Part shown: piece by piece, positions 40,606 through 53,491 of the stretch
Layout of the letters: each line of letters opens with the position of its first letter
Position numbering within the stretch: the stretch's first letter is position 1
Sequence record: OP778609
Source of the DNA: Escherichia phage A73
Direction: 5' to 3' (one strand)
Length of the DNA stretch: 64,000 nucleotides
The notes under the pieces: model-generated
Told to the model about the DNA's origin: nothing
Seen by the model: the letters and a program-made list of their open reading frames with translations, nothing else
The model's database searches: none
Made by a program: the position numbers and the translations under genes

Positions 40606-40983
40606 CTATACTCCAAATGTGGATTTGATTTCAGCAATAACCTCATGCACATTGTTTTCGTTTACTTCAAATGTGTAGGACGTTGGTTTAAGGAACGTCT
40701 GAGGTGAAACATTAACAAAGAATTCAAATTCATCATTAAAAATTTCAAAGTATTTTCCAGGTGTTGATTCTTGGCTTTTGAAAACAGTACCATCTTCCAT
40801 AGTAACAGAAGAAACAGATTTTTCACCAAGGGTGTATGTTTTTAGCTCGTCAACAACGAAACTGGGGCCGTGGCGACGGAGTATTTCAACCATAGTTCGG
40901 TTAGCTCCACAAATACCAGTACGATTAATAAATAACTCTTCACACCGAGGATTGAGAATATAAGTTTTTCCTACTTGCATCAT
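40606..40983 (-). CDS. Acidic small protein, paralog family A (copy 3 in transcript order)
   Basis: 125 aa; shares M.[VI]GKTY.LN...HGP.F[IV]V...YFE...EF.FF...SNA.E[VT][IL].[LE]IK[SA]TF with the two adjacent ORFs. Confidence 0.5.
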   Translation of the reverse strand: MMQVGKTYILNPRCEELFINRTGICGANRTMVEILRRHGPSFVVDELKTYTLGEKSVSSVTMEDGTVFKSQESTPGKYFEIFNDEFEFFVNVSPQTFLKPTSYTFEVNENNVHEVIAEIKSTFGV

Positions 40984-40993
40984 TACAATCTCC

Positions 40994-41353
40994 TTATGCT
41001 AAGTTAAATGTGGATTTGATCAGGTCAATAACCTCTTGTGCGTTGCTCTCCGACACAGATACCTGAATAATTTTAAGGTCGCTGACCTCTTCAAAGTATT
41101 CGAACTCAGATTCACGAAGTTCAAAGTACATTGCCCCACAGCCCACACTGAATGAATCACACCCTACAGCACCATCTTCTGTTGTGATGTTATTAACATA
41201 CTCATCACCTTCGATCATGCTCATGTTGTTAACAATAAATCGTGGCCCGTGCTCATCCAGAAAAGAAACAATCTCGTGATTGTAACTTGGGTCAGCCTGA
41301 ATAAATTCTTCTACGAGTTTTGGATTAAGTTTATAAGTTTTTCCGACTTCCAT
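40994..41353 (-). CDS. Acidic small protein, paralog family A (copy 2)
   Basis: 119 aa; same motif set; own RBS. Confidence 0.5.
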   Translation of the reverse strand: MEVGKTYKLNPKLVEEFIQADPSYNHEIVSFLDEHGPRFIVNNMSMIEGDEYVNNITTEDGAVGCDSFSVGCGAMYFELRESEFEYFEEVSDLKIIQVSVSESNAQEVIDLIKSTFNLA

Positions 41354-41364
41354 CTTTGTTCTCC

Positions 41365-41739
41365 TTACGCCAGGTTAAAGGTAGCTTTAATCAAATCTAA
41401 AGTTTCTTGTGCATTACTACGAGAGACGGCAACCTGAATAATAACAGGGTCTTCATCTTCCCCGACTTCTTTGAAGAAGGGAAATTCACTCTCTGCAAGT
41501 TCAAAGTATACACACTTGTTACCTTCGCAGTCGTGAAAAACGTCACTACCTAAAGTACCATCTTCAAATATGACATTGTTAACATATGCAACATTATCAT
41601 AGAAGTGGGTGGTGTTGACAACAAATTTAGGACCGTGCTTATAAATAAGGTCAACCAATTCTTGATTGTAGCTAGGGTCCATATTGATAAAAGCTTTTTC
41701 TAAGTCTTTATTAAGAATGTAAGTTTTTCCGATTTCCAT
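41365..41739 (-). CDS. Acidic small protein, paralog family A (copy 1)
   Basis: Start at MEIGKTY behind GAGGAGAG RBS (ORF track 41826 runs through promoter and terminator). Confidence 0.5.
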   Translation of the reverse strand: MEIGKTYILNKDLEKAFINMDPSYNQELVDLIYKHGPKFVVNTTHFYDNVAYVNNVIFEDGTLGSDVFHDCEGNKCVYFELAESEFPFFKEVGEDEDPVIIQVAVSRSNAQETLDLIKATFNLA

Positions 41740-41768
41740 CTTTGCTCTCCTCTTCAGTTGATGGATAC

Positions 41769-41798
41769 ATCTTAGTTGATATAGACATGTCTTGTCAA
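41769..41798 (-). promoter_or_regulatory. Sigma70-like promoter with palindromic spacer element
   Basis: On - strand TTGACA-N18-TAAGAT; spacer contains perfect 10-bp palindrome AGACATGTCT (41783-41792); ~30 nt upstream of the copy-1 start. Confidence 0.5.
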
Positions 41799-41819
41799 TA
41801 ACTTTTTGCACATAAAAGA

Positions 41820-41842
41820 AAACCACCCTTCGGGGTGGTTTA
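41820..41842 (-). terminator. Rho-independent terminator after DNA polymerase exon 2
   Basis: On - strand AAACCACCCcgaaGGGTGGTTTtcttttatg: 9-bp stem plus T-run. Confidence 0.7.
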
Positions 41843-41847
41843 AATTA

Positions 41848-42198
41848 CTAGTGGCACGCCCCCCAGTTCATCCCTGTGAGGTATTCACCTGTTATGTGGA
41901 CAGGAGATTTCATCATTCGTGCTGCTTGCTCTACACAACGAACAACCATCTCTCCAACTGGACAATACATGATCGTGTAGATTCCATTCTCATCAGGATC
42001 ACACTTAAACTTCCCTTCTTTCACACAATGACCATCCAAGATCATTTTCTTAGCCAAGCAAGCTTCTACAAATTTCTTCGCGTCAGCTTCGTTGTCAAAG
42101 GTCCAGGTCTTCTTGAACTTGTGCGGTACTTCAAGCTGGTATTCATCCAAAAGTTTAACGAGGTCGTTACTCTCGCCCACATCATTACATGTTGCCAT
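41848..42198 (-). CDS. DNA polymerase (family A, T7-type), 3' exon
   Basis: 116-aa ORF ending ...GMNWGACH, like the family-A C-terminus; contains LLDEYQLEV, a candidate motif C. Frame is closed 2 codons upstream of the ATG; true exon start is probably near 42180. Confidence 0.65.
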   Translation of the reverse strand: MATCNDVGESNDLVKLLDEYQLEVPHKFKKTWTFDNEADAKKFVEACLAKKMILDGHCVKEGKFKCDPDENGIYTIMYCPVGEMVVRCVEQAARMMKSPVHITGEYLTGMNWGACH

Positions 42199-42954
42199 AC
42201 GTTTTCACATATGGATCGGACTATATCACCATCCTTTTCAGGATGCTCCCCATTTCGACGGCACTTGCTCGCCTACGCCTCTCGGCTAGTCTCTGAACGT
42301 TAGGACCATGTGTAGTCACAAGAGATGTGTGTCCAGTTTTTACGGATTTTTATGGACCTTACCACGTTGTAAGGATAACCCATATCCCGAATCTGTGCAC
42401 TTCCATAACCTTGCCCCAGGAAGTTGCAAATCTCTCTAACCTCTTCTTCGGTAACTATACTTCTGGCGTTATCAACCCCTGTTGCTGAACGACATTTATC
42501 AGCAAAGGTTTTCTTGATATTTCCACCACGAGTTGTCCATTGGAGGTTTGAATAGTGGTTATTCCTTTTGTCAGGCCACTTATGATCAACCTCCGGCAAA
42601 CCTTCAGGGTTTGGTACAAAACACTCTGCCACCAAAACGTGAACAGCCTTTGTAGTCGTCCTTTTGTTGAGATACAGACTTACAATAAGATACCCACGTC
42701 CATTATCAACTGCCGCCATTGGTTTCCCTCGACGACCTATAATGGTCCCGTCTTCATAAACCTTGTAACCGAAATAATCTTTATATTCCACATGATCCTC
42801 TTCGCTGCTGATTAACATAGTCTCATACTAACTCACACTTGAATTAATATCAACCTTAGTCTTCCAGCAATTAAAGGAGTTTTCGATGTGAGTTACCTCA
42901 CAAAGCCACAATGTTACTTATGGTAATAGATAATACGTCTAACGCCTTCATCAT
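42180..42954 (-). mobile_element. Group I intron with HNH homing endonuclease ORF (boundaries approximate)
   Basis: On the - strand RNA, in order: P-like AAUUGCUGGAAG (42861-42872), Q-like AAUCAGCAGC (42804-42813), HNH ORF, R-like GUUCAGAGACUAG (42286-42298), S-like GAUAUAGUCC (42218-42227). P/Q and R/S cores are complementary. Confidence 0.7.
42300..42818 (-). CDS. HNH homing endonuclease (intron-encoded)
   Basis: 172 aa; NUMOD4-like N-terminus (YFGYKVYEDGTIIGRRGK...GYLIVSL) and HNH_3-like core (KAVHVLVAECF...VDHKWPDKRNNHYSNLQWTTRGGN). Confidence 0.8.
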   Translation of the reverse strand: MLISSEEDHVEYKDYFGYKVYEDGTIIGRRGKPMAAVDNGRGYLIVSLYLNKRTTTKAVHVLVAECFVPNPEGLPEVDHKWPDKRNNHYSNLQWTTRGGNIKKTFADKCRSATGVDNARSIVTEEEVREICNFLGQGYGSAQIRDMGYPYNVVRSIKIRKNWTHISCDYTWS

Positions 42955-45250
42955 ACCAACCTTTCTTGACCAACTGCCAGTGCAGGAGGATACCCACCAA
43001 GTCAAACAGTGCAGCACCACCATTCTGCTGATAAGCATTAAGCAATGAGTGTTTGGAACGAGTGTAGATCTTACGTCCATCAAGACCGTAGATGAATCGC
43101 TTACCGTTAGCTTCCCAAAACTTCTCTAATGCTTCTTTACGACCTTTCAAGCCGATGTTGCTATCCCAGAATGCGTCGATTACTGCCTGGGCCTTCTCAA
43201 GAGTGATCCCCAGCATTGATGCAATCTTCGCTGCCTGTGCCCCGTACATAATTCCGTATGTCACACCTTTACCTTCACCACGAGAAACCTTCTTCCCTGC
43301 CGCTTTGGTATACGCTTCTGCGTTTCGGGAGTGAGCATCTCCAGATTCCATGATACGAAGATAAGCACCGCCATCGAAATCATAAGCGCCCCATGCTGCG
43401 ATCATACCTTCTAGGTTTGAACCGTCGATACCTACCTGATATTTACCCTCAGAGGCTCTGAATAGTTCACGCATCTCTTTACCGAGAAGAACTTTCTCAT
43501 CCGGCTTAGGTACGTTTGCTACGATCGTATGCTTACGACGACCTGTGTTAGTTATTCCACTATAACGGGCCGGAAGTTTACCGTCAACTCGTAGACGTGG
43601 ATGGTTAAGCCATCCGGTATCAACCTTCTCTTCTTTCAGCGGGTCAAGAACAGATCGTCGGTTACGTAAAGACAGCCATTTAACAATCTGTTTAGCCATT
43701 TCACCATCTACTCGCTCAAGGTTAGGGCAAAGACCCTGTTGATCCTTAAGTTGTGGAGATGTAGGTAATGCACGAGCTTTCTTACGGAAAAACTTGAACA
43801 TCTTTTCTTTATCTGACCACTGCTTAGGTGTGATCGCCAAGCTTTTCAGAATCAGATCACGATACTCCGTCTGATCCAAATCTTCAATGTATTGACGAAC
43901 AATCAGATCAACTTCACTATCGGGACGTTGTTTCTTGAACTGATCTTTAGTTGCATCCTTTGTACGCCAAATTGTTGGGACCCATCCTGCATCACGGATC
44001 AGGAACTTCTTAACGTCGTCCTGGTTACCAATACGCATCGGAATCATAATGTCCGGCATCTTTTGTTCTTTGATATCCATCAAAGCACGAGCCATATCTT
44101 CCGGCGGCAAAGGAACAAGCCCTTGCTGCTTAACGTTTTGTGCACGGATAAAATCACCCATTTTGGATTCGTCCTCTACACCGTGTTCAACACAATACTT
44201 GATCGCGGCAGCAGTAAGAGATCCGTCAGCCTTAAACGGCTTACTTGGTGCACCTTTAAATTCCAAGGCTTCCCAATTGATATTATAACCTAACTTCTCT
44301 AACCATTTCCAACCTGTACCGGAAAGAGATCCATCACCCTTGAAAGGTTTGGATGGGAATGTCGGTTGTGCTGATTTCGACATCTCTTTCTTCGGCAACT
44401 TAGGTTCAACCTCTAACTCAATGTCAGTCATCATCTTATCGATACGATCACGAAGCTTGAGTGCTTTTTCTTCATCAAATGAAACACCCTGAATTTCTTG
44501 CTCAATCATCAGGTAGTCAGTCAACATACCTCGACGCAGGGCATTCTTCCAGTTGATCATTTTATACTTCTTCTGATCTTTGTCTGTTTCATCCTTAAAC
44601 ATGAAGCGTTTATCATCCGGCATGGATTCACAGGAGATCTCTTTCATCAGAGCATCCCACACCATTTCGTTGATAATTACGTCTTCAATAATACGATCGC
44701 AATACTTCCAAAGTGGAAGGCCACGCCAATCTTCAATCGCCACTTTCTGGTTAGCTACTCGCATACCCCAAGCTTCAAGCCCGTGTGGCCCTACAGGCTT
44801 CATTTTACCTGTGACGGGGTTCTTTACCATCTCAGGACAACCGCGAGGCAGAGGGCGATCTGGATACAATGTACGGGACATTGAAAGTGTATCGAAGATG
44901 GTTACTTGTTTACCATTGATCGTCCCCATGCAACCAGGGTCTGCAAACATATCGTAAGTTGTTCCTAGCATCTTCTTAAACAACTGGAGGTCATAGCCGA
45001 AGATGTTGTGGATAGCAACTGCTTTAGGCTCGGTAACGAACCATTCGTTTAATTCTTCAAGGGTGCGGATCTTGAAGTTTTTACCTTTAGATTGGATAAA
45101 TTTAACAGCTTGATCGTAACCTTCTCGCTGTGGATCAAGAAAGATGTTCCAGTTATCTTTTTTGTACTCTTTAAACAAGATGCAGTGGATTAGATCAACT
45201 TCTGTCAACAGACCATTAGCTTCCGCATCTCCAATAAATAAGCCTTTCAT
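42914..45250 (-). CDS. DNA polymerase (family A, T7-type), 5' exon with 3'-5' exonuclease domain
   Basis: 778 aa; Exo I-like FIGDAEANGL, HGLEAWG segment, motif A-like QVGIDGSNLEGMIAAW, motif B-like RGEGKGVTYGIMYGAQAAK, GRKIY...NGGAALFDL; stops just before the expected motif C. Confidence 0.85.
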   Translation of the reverse strand: MKGLFIGDAEANGLLTEVDLIHCILFKEYKKDNWNIFLDPQREGYDQAVKFIQSKGKNFKIRTLEELNEWFVTEPKAVAIHNIFGYDLQLFKKMLGTTYDMFADPGCMGTINGKQVTIFDTLSMSRTLYPDRPLPRGCPEMVKNPVTGKMKPVGPHGLEAWGMRVANQKVAIEDWRGLPLWKYCDRIIEDVIINEMVWDALMKEISCESMPDDKRFMFKDETDKDQKKYKMINWKNALRRGMLTDYLMIEQEIQGVSFDEEKALKLRDRIDKMMTDIELEVEPKLPKKEMSKSAQPTFPSKPFKGDGSLSGTGWKWLEKLGYNINWEALEFKGAPSKPFKADGSLTAAAIKYCVEHGVEDESKMGDFIRAQNVKQQGLVPLPPEDMARALMDIKEQKMPDIMIPMRIGNQDDVKKFLIRDAGWVPTIWRTKDATKDQFKKQRPDSEVDLIVRQYIEDLDQTEYRDLILKSLAITPKQWSDKEKMFKFFRKKARALPTSPQLKDQQGLCPNLERVDGEMAKQIVKWLSLRNRRSVLDPLKEEKVDTGWLNHPRLRVDGKLPARYSGITNTGRRKHTIVANVPKPDEKVLLGKEMRELFRASEGKYQVGIDGSNLEGMIAAWGAYDFDGGAYLRIMESGDAHSRNAEAYTKAAGKKVSRGEGKGVTYGIMYGAQAAKIASMLGITLEKAQAVIDAFWDSNIGLKGRKEALEKFWEANGKRFIYGLDGRKIYTRSKHSLLNAYQQNGGAALFDLVGILLHWQLVKKGWYDEGVRRIIYYHK

Positions 45251-46792: not shown

Positions 46793-47054
46793 ACCACACT
46801 TCTACGAAAACCTTTTGGGAATCTTTGATGATCTTTGCCCCGACTCTTTCAATCCCCTTGAAGAAAGATTGTAAGATGTAATCATCTAACACGTTTACTC
46901 CATAAGCATCGTGGAGGGATTTTTCATCGTGAACATACACAACCATCTTACCATCATACGTAACTTGAATGCAAGGGTCATCTTCCCAAGTAATAGCCGG
47001 AGAATCCGGCTCAAGCTTTGCAATAACACCAATAGTCAATCGGTTGTCACTCAC
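46722..47054 (-). CDS. Hypothetical protein
   Basis: 110-aa ORF, start overlaps stop of the GHKL-like gene. Confidence 0.4.
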   Translation of the reverse strand: MSDNRLTIGVIAKLEPDSPAITWEDDPCIQVTYDGKMVVYVHDEKSLHDAYGVNVLDDYILQSFFKGIERVGAKIIKDSQKVFVEVWYDGCDPGYLSSKIKDIYGEDYEI

Positions 47055-48268
47055 TCTTTACCCCCTGCGATGCGTAACATTTGGATAGTTTTCTCCAGTT
47101 CTTTACGAGGTTTGGCAACTAAACGACGTTCGTGTCGCTTCAGGAAGCCTTCTAAGAACTCTAACGGTTTAAAGGATAACACTTCCTGTACTGATTCGTC
47201 AACAGCATACTCTTTCTGGACCATACGATAAACCGGATTTTTTACAGTTACAGGAGTATAACCCTTACTGATCGCCATTTGGGTAACAACACGCTTCTTG
47301 CCATCGGTCCATGAGTCATCGATCGGGAAAGAATCTTTACCGTATTTTTCAGAGAATAACTTAACTGCTGTTTTTGTCAAGTCATCCTGATCTTCTTGTG
47401 TTCGACTTTGACCCCAATAATAACCACCAGAGGTCTTAGCACGACGTTCCGAGAACAAAGCAAGGTCATCGTACTGCTCAAGAGCTAAACGCGCCAGAAG
47501 CTCGATATCGTCGCTTTCTGACAGCAGTCGGTTTGCTTCGTACTTAACTTCAAAAGTATTTGCACTATCACGATCACGGTCAAGGGTGAAAGCTTCTGGC
47601 TTGAAGTCGTAATCGAATTTAAAATTACCTGGAACACGAGTAACGAACAGTCCATTTACAAACAGGTTGCAGTCACCGCCTGTGATAGATCCATCCTCTT
47701 CTTCATTTTGGTATTCATCAGCCGCATTGTACAGCTTAGTATAAGCTTTGCCTCGATCATTCTGAATAACGACTGTACGTTCAGTTGTTGGTGCATAGTT
47801 ATCCATAATTTCTGACATAGCGTACTGAGGGATGTTTTCAATGATCACAGTTACAGTATTTGAATCACGGCCCGACAAAGCATTTTCATGGATATCTACA
47901 GCCAAAATGTTCTGTTCGTATGTGGTATCGTAAACCATATTTGGAATCCAAAGATCATTACCATTTTCGATAACGATATCTGCACCTTCACGAACAAGCA
48001 CTAAAAGACCTACTTTCAGACCTTCGCCAAACTTACCGATCTTACTGTCATCATCACGTTTGGTTGAAACACCCATCAAAAGGCCGGAGACAGGAACAAC
48101 GCCACCACGAGAGATGATTGTGATCTTGCCTTGATTACTGTCATCATTGCCAAAATAAATATTGAAATCTTCCGTATCGATAGCGTTTTGCATGAGTTCA
48201 CGAGCACCTTGCCACCATGACCAGTGGCTGACGTAATTTTCAGTGATGCTCAATTTAATCTGTTTCAT
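47051..48268 (-). CDS. GHKL-type ATPase-like protein (putative)
   Basis: 405 aa; N-box-like RELMQNAID (E24, N28, D31) and G2-box-like GKFGEGLKVG (78-87); G1 box not clear. Confidence 0.4.
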   Translation of the reverse strand: MKQIKLSITENYVSHWSWWQGARELMQNAIDTEDFNIYFGNDDSNQGKITIISRGGVVPVSGLLMGVSTKRDDDSKIGKFGEGLKVGLLVLVREGADIVIENGNDLWIPNMVYDTTYEQNILAVDIHENALSGRDSNTVTVIIENIPQYAMSEIMDNYAPTTERTVVIQNDRGKAYTKLYNAADEYQNEEEDGSITGGDCNLFVNGLFVTRVPGNFKFDYDFKPEAFTLDRDRDSANTFEVKYEANRLLSESDDIELLARLALEQYDDLALFSERRAKTSGGYYWGQSRTQEDQDDLTKTAVKLFSEKYGKDSFPIDDSWTDGKKRVVTQMAISKGYTPVTVKNPVYRMVQKEYAVDESVQEVLSFKPLEFLEGFLKRHERRLVAKPRKELEKTIQMLRIAGGKE

Positions 48269-48280
48269 TTATTTACCCTC

Positions 48281-48997
48281 TTATTTGTTGTATTGATAAA
48301 TTGCTTCAGCTAAACCCCGTGGAGTTAGTGACCGGATCATCTTAGTTCTTGCTGACTTACCTCCCAACTTATTCTGCTGATCTGACCAACCAGGTGCAAC
48401 AGGAACCGGAGAGGTTTTTGGAATTATAAACCCATTTCCTGTCCAAAGTCCAGTCTTTTTCGGATAAGCATCCCGTGGTTTAATGTATTGAGGAAAATAA
48501 GGGTTAACATCATTTACCGGAAGGTAACCACCATATTCCCAAGGGTTAAAATATACAGTAGGTTTTCGCCATTGTCCAGCTAAAACACTTACTGGGTTTT
48601 CAATCATATACGGACAATCGAAAACAAATTCAGCAAGCCAGGCTGCAATCTTCGCAGTTCTTACCGCCTTGATCTGGAAGAAAGGATCTTTTGCTTTCTT
48701 CGATGCAAAGTGACGAGAACCACTAACAGCCATATCGGTACATGGAGGGTAGGCAAGGATCAGGTCCGGCGCAGGCAATCCTAAGTTCTCTACATTCTCC
48801 ATCCATTCAATATCGATAAAGGCGTTAACGTAAGTGATGTTGGGATGAATTTCCTTTACGCCTTCATAATCCCCGTGATCAGCATCATCATAGTTGAAGC
48901 AGTAGCATTTGTGCCCTGCCTTCGCCCAGGGAAGAACATCAATCCCTGAGCCAGAAAAGAGACTCCAGATAATCTTTTTATTCATCGTAGCATCCAT
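48281..48997 (-). CDS. Compact C5-cytosine methyltransferase-like protein
   Basis: 238 aa; motif I-like SLFSGSG (12-18), motif IV-like YPPC (83-86), motif VI-like ENP (133-135), RSLTPRGLAEAI near C-terminus; very short region where a target-recognition domain would sit. Confidence 0.5.
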   Translation of the reverse strand: MDATMNKKIIWSLFSGSGIDVLPWAKAGHKCYCFNYDDADHGDYEGVKEIHPNITYVNAFIDIEWMENVENLGLPAPDLILAYPPCTDMAVSGSRHFASKKAKDPFFQIKAVRTAKIAAWLAEFVFDCPYMIENPVSVLAGQWRKPTVYFNPWEYGGYLPVNDVNPYFPQYIKPRDAYPKKTGLWTGNGFIIPKTSPVPVAPGWSDQQNKLGGKSARTKMIRSLTPRGLAEAIYQYNK

Positions 48998-49290
48998 ATA
49001 GTGGTTAATTTACAAATACACCAGAAAATCCCGATCAGTGTAGCAAGAGCAATAACACAAGTCAATGCCATAGGTAAGAATATTGTCATAATCACTGCAA
49101 ATACTGAAATACCTACGCTTGCAATAAGATCCGGTACGAAATAGTGAAATGGTTCTCTGGCCTTTTTAACGTTGTCCCATGTTATCACTACGGAGGTAAT
49201 AGCGAGCCAGAATAAAAAGTACAAAGTGCAAGAAAATAAAGTCATATTTGACTTAATCATATCAAACCACATGTTGTAGAATTCAATCAT
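48982..49290 (-). CDS. Small 3-TM membrane protein
   Basis: 102 aa; begins MIE like the upstream neighbour; overlaps the MTase-like gene start. Confidence 0.45.
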   Translation of the reverse strand: MIEFYNMWFDMIKSNMTLFSCTLYFLFWLAITSVVITWDNVKKAREPFHYFVPDLIASVGISVFAVIMTIFLPMALTCVIALATLIGIFWCICKLTTIWMLR

Positions 49291-49610
49291 TCAGTTTTCC
49301 TCGGTACAGATGCAATAACAGCCTTTTCGACGAGACATACAATAAATCTCCCAATCCCTGCCAAAAGGAGAGCAAAGACTGTAAAAGGCAACCCATAAAT
49401 AAGAACTAGGGCCATCAATCCAAAACCAATGGCAAACAGGGTTTCTGTGCCTAGCCACATCTTAGAGTAATTGATATAATTATACCGCAATTTTAAAAAC
49501 AGTCCAGCAATAGAGCCTACAGAAAATATACCAATCAACCAAGGTGCGGTTACAAATGAACGACTGAACCCTTCCCAAAAAACAAAAACATTAATGATTG
49601 CTTCGATCAT
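49287..49610 (-). CDS. Small 3-TM membrane protein
   Basis: 107 aa; start-stop overlaps on both sides. Confidence 0.45.
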   Translation of the reverse strand: MIEAIINVFVFWEGFSRSFVTAPWLIGIFSVGSIAGLFLKLRYNYINYSKMWLGTETLFAIGFGLMALVLIYGLPFTVFALLLAGIGRFIVCLVEKAVIASVPRKTE

Positions 49611-51445: not shown

Positions 51446-53491
51446 TCAGAAAGGTGCGTCGTCGTCCCAATCATCCGGCTCTGTGTCCGGCACATCAGGA
51501 ATATCACCTGTGGATTCAACGATACTTTGTTGTTCCCACGTAGGTTCTTCTGAAGGTTGTTCCATTTCTTCCATAACCTTCTTGATCTCTTCCTCTTGCT
51601 CACGCAGGAAGTTATCATCCGGCTCAGGAATATCTTCCTCTTTAATATCTGAACGAGTGAGATCACTGTTTTGTTCAGACAGAGGTTGAATCTCTGCTGC
51701 TTTAGGCTTAAAGTCTGGAGAACGATGATCATCTTCTGGATGAGCGGCATACCACTCACGAAGAGTTTCATAAGGACTCTCTAAGAAGCCCTCTGGCGGT
51801 TCCAGATAATCACCCGTGTCAATGTCATAGAACACAGGGAATTTACCAGCACGACCGTGTTTACGGTCATCCAGAATAACAAAGTAAGAAGTGTTACGTT
51901 GTTTCATCGGGAGTTCTGGATCTTTGTTACGTTCAATACCCCACATGTAATAAGTGTTACGCATCATTGCACGGCTACCAGCAAACTGCGCTGACTGGAC
52001 TTGACCACCAAATTCATGAGGCTTACCAGATTCAGGCTTGTTAAGGTGACAGAAGCAATAATAGGTAAAGCCAAGCTCTTTTGCCAGTTTGGAGATCTCA
52101 TCAGAGAATCGTTCCAGTTCCTGGTTAGCTTCGGAAGCACTCATACCTTGCACAAGACGAGTGATTGGGTCAATAAAGATATCTTCACAACCTTCTACGA
52201 TCACTGCGTGACGGATAGCACCTTTCAGTTCATCCCATACTGCACGACCATAGTTGTTATAATAGATAACACTATCACCAACTTCATCAGTAGCCTTGAT
52301 CAGTTCTTCTTGCTTAAAGTAGCCACGTTGACCTTCAAATACTTCATTACCCCAAATGTCACGGAAAGTTCCATCTTCTTGAGGAATCATTACCTTTTCT
52401 GCGTTAACAAAGTCTTTATGATAACGCTTACCTGCGATCTTTTTACAGGTAATTTCGTTCTCTTCTTCAAACTTAAACACCGCAGCCTTTGACTTCTCAA
52501 TGCCTGTAATGTGTTCTACCATCTGGTTAAGAAGTTCACTCTTACCCATCTTGACCCCAGCCCCGATAAAGTAACCTTCACCTGGGCGACGGCCTAAAGT
52601 AAGCTTGGTCATGGTAGGCCAAGGGAATTTCTTACCAAGTTTAGGGATCTCATGGGCTTTTTCACGGAACTGTGAATAAGTCGAGAAACCATCCGGCACA
52701 TATTCCTTTGGCTTCATTGCAGCCCAAAACAACTGATCAGAAAGTCCTTTGTTATACATGTCGCAAGGGTCCATATCTTCTGGAATGTCCACGACTTTCA
52801 TTTGTGGAATTACAGAGTATACCGCTGCAACTGCATCTTTACCTTTCATGATCCCTTTGGCCTTCTCTGCCTCTGTTGCACGGTCAGCGTCGAAAGCTAC
52901 GATAATCTCTTCAAACTTACTCAGAAGCTTATAGTTATTCTTCTGTGATAAGTTTTGCACGGCATTGGATGTACCGTTAGAGATTGATACTACGGTGAAG
53001 TTAGGTTTACGGGTGGAACCATCCTTCGGTTTGTACTTCTCTGTCAATACCTGCCACAAGATTGCAGCATCATATTCACCTTCAGTGATAAAGATCATAC
53101 GTTTGGAAGACTTATTTGCACCTTCCAGCCCAAACATATCACAAGCCACAGATTGGAAACCAATAGTTGTAAAGTGACCTTTCTGTTGCTTAGGGATCGT
53201 AAGATCACGCTTCTTAAAACCTACAACCTTACCTTCCAATGTGTACGGAAAATAATGTGCTTCTGGAGTCATACCGTCTTTAGCTGACAACTTGGTACGA
53301 ATACCAAATCGTTTAGCTGTCTTTTCGTCGATACCACGCTCAGGGATACTTTTACACGGATAAGTCAATACGTCTTCAACTGTTTCTTCCACACGAGACA
53401 CACCACCACCATAATTACGTGCTACTGAAGCTTTAGGATTTTTATGTCCAAACTTATAACCGCCAAACAGACTTTCGCCAATAGTGCTCAT
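51446..53491 (-). CDS. Primase-helicase (T7 gp4-like)
   Basis: 681 aa; TOPRIM-like FITEGEYDAAIL and AFDADRA, DnaB-type Walker A GAGVKMGKSELLNQM; acidic C-terminus ending DDWDDDAPF. Confidence 0.8.
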   Translation of the reverse strand: MSTIGESLFGGYKFGHKNPKASVARNYGGGVSRVEETVEDVLTYPCKSIPERGIDEKTAKRFGIRTKLSAKDGMTPEAHYFPYTLEGKVVGFKKRDLTIPKQQKGHFTTIGFQSVACDMFGLEGANKSSKRMIFITEGEYDAAILWQVLTEKYKPKDGSTRKPNFTVVSISNGTSNAVQNLSQKNNYKLLSKFEEIIVAFDADRATEAEKAKGIMKGKDAVAAVYSVIPQMKVVDIPEDMDPCDMYNKGLSDQLFWAAMKPKEYVPDGFSTYSQFREKAHEIPKLGKKFPWPTMTKLTLGRRPGEGYFIGAGVKMGKSELLNQMVEHITGIEKSKAAVFKFEEENEITCKKIAGKRYHKDFVNAEKVMIPQEDGTFRDIWGNEVFEGQRGYFKQEELIKATDEVGDSVIYYNNYGRAVWDELKGAIRHAVIVEGCEDIFIDPITRLVQGMSASEANQELERFSDEISKLAKELGFTYYCFCHLNKPESGKPHEFGGQVQSAQFAGSRAMMRNTYYMWGIERNKDPELPMKQRNTSYFVILDDRKHGRAGKFPVFYDIDTGDYLEPPEGFLESPYETLREWYAAHPEDDHRSPDFKPKAAEIQPLSEQNSDLTRSDIKEEDIPEPDDNFLREQEEEIKKVMEEMEQPSEEPTWEQQSIVESTGDIPDVPDTEPDDWDDDAPF

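Follow-up and report, generated by a model that had tools for sequence, protein, structure and literature searches.

The dcm gene of phage K42 (711 bp, encoding a Dcm of 236 amino acids, aa) triggers the retron Ec86 through 5-methylcytosine (5mC) on CCWGG in the multicopy single-stranded DNA (msDNA); the 5mC made by K42 Dcm was detected by mass spectrometry, the enzyme works alone when expressed in E. coli, and its quadruple mutant C82A/E128A/K175A/K176A, used as an inactive control, has lost the retron-activating effect. Later peer-reviewed work restates that a DNA cytosine methyltransferase encoded by a phage methylates the msDNA of retron Eco1. A methylase gene of the same compact family, followed by a gene for a protein of the GHKL fold, occurs in Escherichia phage A73 (sequence record OP778609), within the 64,000-nt stretch analysed here, called the window and numbered 1-64000. 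As for the clade concerned, phages of the LTH01, UPEC06, A7_1 and A5-4 type have been described as 'Septuagintavirus', and in the paper describing them HHpred already served to infer a DNA cytosine methylase. The supplement of that paper enters 'A5-4_7 DNA cytosine methyltransferase' for all four phages, and the A5-4_7 tag is nine genes away from the primase/helicase tag, in agreement with the gene order of the window. The GHKL gene is not mentioned in that paper.

Both open reading frames (ORFs) lie on the minus strand. The methylase ORF (238 aa) occupies 48281..48997 and the GHKL-fold ORF (405 aa) 47051..48268; the spacer between them (48269..48280) is exactly 12 nt long, gagggtaaataa, and holds a GAGGG Shine-Dalgarno sequence for the GHKL-fold gene. 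A preliminary description of this DNA had proposed these two ORFs and the gap between them, which can be read directly from the sequence, and had guessed a C5-methyltransferase (C5-MTase) and a GHKL fold, correctly so on family and fold evidence. It had also taken the pair for a coupled arrangement that it could not assign to a described phage system; the coupling is not supported. Instead, the locus probably consists of two independently functioning phage genes, adjacent solely through synteny in one lineage. Because the methylase family is common and has a member tested in the laboratory, and the GHKL gene usually occurs without a methylase, a new two-gene system is not indicated, and the adjacency is lineage-specific synteny.

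The distribution of the two families carries this reading. Scanned with up to 10 kb of flank per side, 48 loci encoding a GHKL homologue yielded a methylase in only five cases, namely the window, UPEC06 and three contigs of Certrevirus type. All five belong to one clade, in which the GHKL protein has 69% identity or more to that of the window. In the three Certrevirus-type contigs the methylase is about 0.25-1.2 kb upstream of the GHKL gene, not 12 nt. The reciprocal scan, covering the 80 best methylase loci (1.4 Mb), found a GHKL homologue within 10 kb in none of them. The pairing is thus limited to the Septuagintavirus/Certrevirus lineage, and almost everywhere else each gene occurs without the other; the methylase family is found in 1520 phage records (tblastn) and the GHKL family in 100. 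The Seunavirus-type phage LNA4 and two IMG/VR contigs have both genes, 28-44 kb apart. Elsewhere, GHKL genes occur in Vibrio, Pseudomonas and Seunavirus phages and in prophage-like regions of bacterial assemblies, with replication/recombination or early genes as neighbours and no methylase; the cases on bacterial chromosomes (Mucilaginibacter, Sphingobacterium) are prophage or phage contexts, also without methylase. Clustering of the neighbours at the 48 loci gave no conserved partner gene for the GHKL family beyond close relatives, and the homologue lists of the two proteins contain no methylase-GHKL fusion.

Moreover, the GHKL gene persists where the methylase has decayed or is absent. Pectobacterium phage PcCB7V has an intact 401-aa GHKL gene preceded by a 27-residue C-terminal methylase remnant. 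No methylase is found within 10 kb of the GHKL gene of phiTE; according to the CB7 paper, phiTE and DU_PP_IV have no cytosine methylase, and both retain the GHKL gene. Regarding sequence identity, the methylase of the window is nearer to siphophage methylases (59-62%) than to the syntenic Certrevirus one (only 46%), whereas the GHKL proteins are about 70% identical; as these levels differ, they suggest that the two genes have different evolutionary histories.

The remnant in PcCB7V (locus L002; 7218-7385, minus strand) reads LGGKSEKTKQLRSLTPEGFARAVYQHN and stands just upstream of the GHKL gene, in a frame other than that of the annotated 62-aa CDS 'N-type ATP pyrophosphatase'; this label is probably a mis-annotation over the decayed methylase gene.

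The stand-alone GHKL-fold protein

The 405-aa protein matches PHROG 6077 (E=7e-126) and has no Pfam match; the thresholds of HATPase_c and HATPase_c_3 are not reached. In its GHKL homologues HATPase_c_3 scores 12-17 bits (cut-off 25), and a match of the protein to the ATP-binding domain of sacsin (E=2e-5) is also below threshold. Some of the homologues carry the precomputed Pfam tag PF25856. The protein has an N-terminal Bergerat domain, a second, beta-rich domain with an invariant DRDR loop (230-233) and a helical C-terminal domain; the Bergerat alpha/beta sandwich followed by a transducer-like second domain is the layout of the GHL subgroup. In an alignment of 75 sequences, R23, E24, Q27, N28 and D31 of the N-box (RELMQNAID) are invariant, and so are G78, G81, E82, G83 and K85 of the G2 box (IGKFGEGLK). 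The G1-box Asp, which in GHKL ATPases binds N6 of adenine, is replaced: it is Ser53 in the window protein, and among the family members N (61/75), S (10/75) or T (4/75), never Asp.

An exhaustive profile search recovered 1711 clusters of this family at 50% identity (E <=1e-30). Most of the proteins recovered are stand-alone and 330-400 aa long, and the stand-alone family spans 330-420 aa. Its invariants are the N-box (RExxQNxxD), the G2 box (IGxxGEGxK), the DRDR loop and a segment GxSxK. In a few relatives of ~1100 aa the module is present three times in tandem (family profile E <=1e-98); these pass the Pfam thresholds of HATPase_c_3 and HATPase_c (53-59 bits) and keep a canonical D-x-G-x-G G1 box in each copy. 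The triple-repeat proteins (P0256, P0266, P0268, P0270, P0279, P0286, P0304 and P0309) are metagenomic and measure about 940-1120 aa, and their layout recalls the repeat organisation of sacsin.

Compared with the GHL ATPases (topoisomerase II/GyrB, Hsp90/TRAP1, MutL, MORC, SMCHD1 and the sacsin repeat), the window protein differs in the replaced aspartate of the G1 DxGxG, in having no Toprim, endonuclease, CW or client-binding domain, and in the invariant DRDR loop and helical C-terminal domain that are the stand-alone family's own. A literature search on the function of phage GHKL or histidine-kinase-like ATPases returned nothing relevant. The protein is a stand-alone GHL-type protein (GHKL plus second domain; MORC/MutL/Hsp90/rIIA-like) of the replication/early block, and we infer that it most likely works as a nucleotide-gated dimer, a clamp or scaffold acting on phage DNA or on a client protein. 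The nucleotide pocket is non-canonical, the G1 Asp being lost, and the protein would not depend on the methylase.

Phage rIIA proteins are among the closest known comparisons for such a protein; they too are made early by phages and carry a GHKL domain at the N-terminus. In a structure search against viral models, the best matches after the protein's own family are RIIA and RIIA-like proteins (E 1e-8 to 1e-5, TM about 0.4), the best annotated structural neighbours in that set. Together with the N, S or T that stands for the G1 Asp in 75/75 family members, and with a weak similarity to TmtA, a Tiamat defence protein, in its GHKL region, they speak for a nucleotide-independent pseudo-ATPase, which like a small rIIA would protect against abortive infection or other host defence and be unrelated to DNA replication. 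This account is nevertheless unlikely. The invariance of the catalytic Glu and the Mg-binding Asn of the N-box, of the G2 box and of the DRDR loop points to retained nucleotide chemistry, and T4 rIIA itself keeps a canonical DFGPG G1 box. The window protein is about half the length of rIIA, and profile scans of the window proteins found no rIIB-like neighbour near its gene. At the sequence level, a relationship to rIIA was rejected: hhalign against T4 rIIA gave an insignificant probability of 4.5%, over only 47 columns around the G2 box.

The stand-alone family, related to the sacsin, Hsp90 and MORC GHL ATPases, could also represent a new kind of clamp in phage replication, nucleotide-gated or differently liganded, or a counter-defence factor, which in Septuagintavirus/Certrevirus may additionally cooperate with the methylase; as a whole, this proposal is speculative and quite unlikely. 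The interest that remains in the locus lies with this gene, as it belongs to a large, uncharacterised, phage-borne family set in replication modules, with an unusual, degenerate nucleotide pocket. The protein is a reasonable, not an urgent, target for biochemistry.

Adjacency and gene order

The methylase and GHKL genes are part of a co-directional run of ~16 early/replication-module genes that lies between the primase-helicase (51446-53491) and the DNA polymerase (42914-45250). Upstream of the run are a terminator-like site (51435-51416) and a strong site resembling a promoter (51409-51381). Being co-directional and 12 nt apart, the two genes are almost certainly co-transcribed. The single overlapping operon that the preliminary description drew from the methylase, the GHKL gene and two membrane-protein genes holds insofar as there is a long co-directional run, but not as a dedicated four-gene unit.

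Some observations weigh against regarding the two genes as independent neighbours. They are co-directional with a gap of just 12 nt, and the methylase stands directly upstream of the GHKL gene in Septuagintavirus and in several genomes of Certrevirus type, despite considerable divergence of the methylases, an order whose recurrence could reflect repeated selection for position. With respect to the proposed action of the GHKL protein, the degeneracy of its G1 box leaves it uncertain whether ATP is bound at all.

Prokaryotic MORC/paraMORC GHKL genes are said to be linked to restriction-modification genes, a linkage ascribed to Iyer, Abhiman and Aravind in 2008. The window resembles that situation in having a GHKL-fold gene beside a DNA methyltransferase gene; it differs in that the family at large does not keep the two genes linked, and in the absence of any restriction, helicase or nuclease partner. 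By analogy, a true module of this lineage would have a MORC/paraMORC-like GHKL ATPase that loads, targets or regulates the methylase, or that senses the methylation status. The short spacing with the GHKL gene's own Shine-Dalgarno, the co-transcription, the methylase-first order shared by the window, UPEC06 and the three Certrevirus-type contigs, and a GHKL fold resembling MORC and MutL are all in line with such a module. It is very unlikely all the same, given that each gene overwhelmingly occurs without the other, that PcCB7V, phiTE and DU_PP_IV retained the GHKL gene while their methylase decayed or was lost, that other phages keep the two genes tens of kilobases apart (28-44 kb), and that a homologous methylase is active alone in E. 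coli and no fusions were found.

Two independent genes thus remain the preferred explanation, and the genes upstream of them are outside any methylase/GHKL unit as well. These are two small hydrophobic ORFs of 102 and 107 aa (48982-49290 and 49287-49610, minus strand), whose stop and start codons overlap. They had been called paralogous; they share a similar size and hydrophobic pattern, but BLASTP gives only E=3.5, which is not significant, and paralogy is not shown. One of the two is probably the upstream ORF family of ~94 aa that phiTE, a phage with no methylase, has as well. A second ATG in the methylase ORF, at 48985, would give a 234-aa protein and overlaps the stop codon of the ORF upstream as ATGA. 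Because of this overlap, and because the annotated homologues are 234 aa long, 48985 is the probable start of the methylase, rather than the ATG at 48997.

The compact methyltransferase

The 238-aa protein matches PHROG 757 'DNA methyltransferase' (E=3.3e-78) and belongs to a compact family (2325 clusters at 90% identity) whose members all measure about 225-260 aa. It occurs in T1-like, Dhillonvirus, Kagunavirus, Webervirus, RB49 and rV5-like phages, among others. Profile searches, which had been suggested as a check on both proteins of the pair, gave a divided outcome: the matches to PHROG 757 and 6077 are strong, but the Pfam thresholds were missed, those of HATPase_c as described above and that of PF00145 (DNA_methylase) with 20.8 bits against a cut-off of 22; the score for TIGR00675 was 15.3 bits against 100.65. 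Pfam, NCBIfam and PADLOC gave sub-threshold matches at most for the two proteins. PDB sequence searches with both proteins and both family profiles gave nothing useful, and only structure comparison was informative.

All the motifs first noticed from the sequence alone can be found, namely SLFSGSG, YPPC, ENP and RSLTPR in the smaller protein (238 aa) and ELMQNAID and GKFGEG in the larger one (405 aa), and the two PHROG matches (E=3.3e-78 and E=7e-126) and the invariance of the motif residues in the family alignments set them beyond chance. In the methylase alignment (36 members), F14, G16, S17 and G18 of motif I (SLFSGSG), the FxGxG motif that binds SAM, are kept in at least 90% of the sequences, and P84, P85 and C86 of motif IV (YPPC, with the catalytic cysteine) and E133, N134 and P135 of motif VI (IENP) are invariant; in C5-MTases the Glu of motif VI touches the flipped cytosine. 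WRKP occupies the position expected for motif VIII (QxRxR), with W143 and R144 invariant; the PKK motif supplies K180/K181; and the C-terminal IRSLTPRG resembles motif IX, while a clear GNAV motif X was not identified in the alignment. Across the family, FxGSG, PPC, ENP, WRKP and IRSLTPRG are invariant or nearly so.

The small protein has the three-dimensional fold of the C5-MTases, with DNMT3B, itself an enzyme with a small target-recognition domain (TRD), as its closest structural match. Sequence identity to the catalytic domain of DNMT3A/DNMT3B, to M.HhaI, to M.HaeIII and to the Dcm of E. coli/Shigella is just 10-21%, and the window methylase differs from DNMT3A/DNMT3B and the bacterial type II C5-MTases in having neither a large TRD nor a clear motif X. 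The idea that it is truncated, being too short for a TRD, did not stand up, as it is a full-length member of a 225-260-aa family in which the 236-aa K42 Dcm is active at CCWGG. Judged by its sequence and family, the small protein is a C5-cytosine methyltransferase that is compact but complete, with the usual architecture of a common, active family, and it is an orphan enzyme, with no partner restriction enzyme.

The link to K42 Dcm runs through phage KarlJaspers (Bas06), whose genome is ~95% identical to that of K42 and whose 236-aa protein is annotated 'Dcm-like C5 cytosine methyltransferase'. The window methylase is 55% identical to it over the full length. The two are of the same compact family and length, share the catalytic Cys, the Glu of ENP and the paired lysines (KK), and have predicted structures nearest to DNMT3; they differ in their genomes, a 140-kb myophage for the window gene and a 51-kb siphophage for KarlJaspers. 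All four residues mutated in K42 Dcm are conserved in the window methylase, where C86 corresponds to C82 and E133 to E128. By analogy with K42 Dcm, the window methylase would also form 5mC, using S-adenosylmethionine (SAM) and the PPC cysteine C86 to modify a short motif in replicating phage DNA. Such methylation may blunt restriction by the host; its known price is that sensors of the retron Ec86 type may be triggered. A protein that makes no DNA 5mC, either transferring another group (e.g. carboxymethyl from carboxy-SAM, Cx-SAM) or acting on tRNA/RNA as DNMT2 does, is most improbable in view of the 5mC found by mass spectrometry for the closest characterised homologue (55% identity), of the conserved motifs I, IV and VI and K42 functional residues, and of the ORF listing and profile scans, in which no gene for a Cx-SAM synthase (CmoA-like) was noticed nearby.

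As for the target, CCWGG is proven for the K42 subtype only. The variable loop between the core motifs reads GWSDQQNKLGG in the window methylase and DNPGWAKTGG in KarlJaspers; because this loop differs between subtypes, CCWGG specificity is not simply transferable. In the window, CCWGG occurs 72 times against 123 expected, being only halved, and GATC is not depleted. By comparison, TCCGGA (0 vs 20.7 expected), CTGCAG (0 vs 15.2), GGTACC (0 vs 10.6), AGGCCT (0 vs 10.2) and GGATCC (0 vs 9.7) are absent, and CCSGG is almost gone (CCCGG 0 vs 13.6 expected; CCGGG 1 vs 15.8). The pattern looks like restriction-site avoidance combined with methylation, and the 72 CCWGG sites left while many 6-bp palindromes were eliminated were counted in favour of a methylase; with CCWGG depletion only moderate, these motif statistics of 64 kb cannot assign the target.

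The practical relevance of methylases of this kind is that restriction of phage DNA is prevented by them and that they can set off retron Ec86/Eco1. The enzyme is a routine orphan phage Dcm-like methylase, annotated for the clade and characterised in a relative, and the pair as first flagged matters little.

Phage identity and neighbouring genes

The window region is 96.7% identical to Escherichia phage W70 and 93-96% identical to LTH01, UPEC06, A7_1 and A5-4, which are Vequintavirinae myophages of ~140 kb; by this identity, the window is from a Septuagintavirus-type E. coli myophage of the Vequintavirinae.

In W70 the primase-helicase region is split around an HNH homing endonuclease gene (W70_66/67/68), whereas in the window the primase-helicase (51446-53491, minus strand) is a single intact ORF of 681 aa; the phage of the window is therefore without that mobile insert. 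The PolA-type DNA polymerase (41848-45250, minus strand) is in two ORFs, of 778 aa (42914-45250) and 116 aa (41848-42198), and the insert that splits it encodes a 172-aa HNH-like ORF (42300-42818). The Rfam group I intron model gives a full-length match to 42196-42929, with 39.7 bits (under the gathering score of 50) and E=1.6e-7. The annotation of W70 has the same polymerase split.

Finally, three successive, clearly paralogous ORFs of 125, 119 and about 125-153 aa occupy 40606-41826 on the minus strand; they have in common an N-terminal M(x)VGKTYxLNP... and a C-terminal ...AQEVIDLIKSTFNLA.

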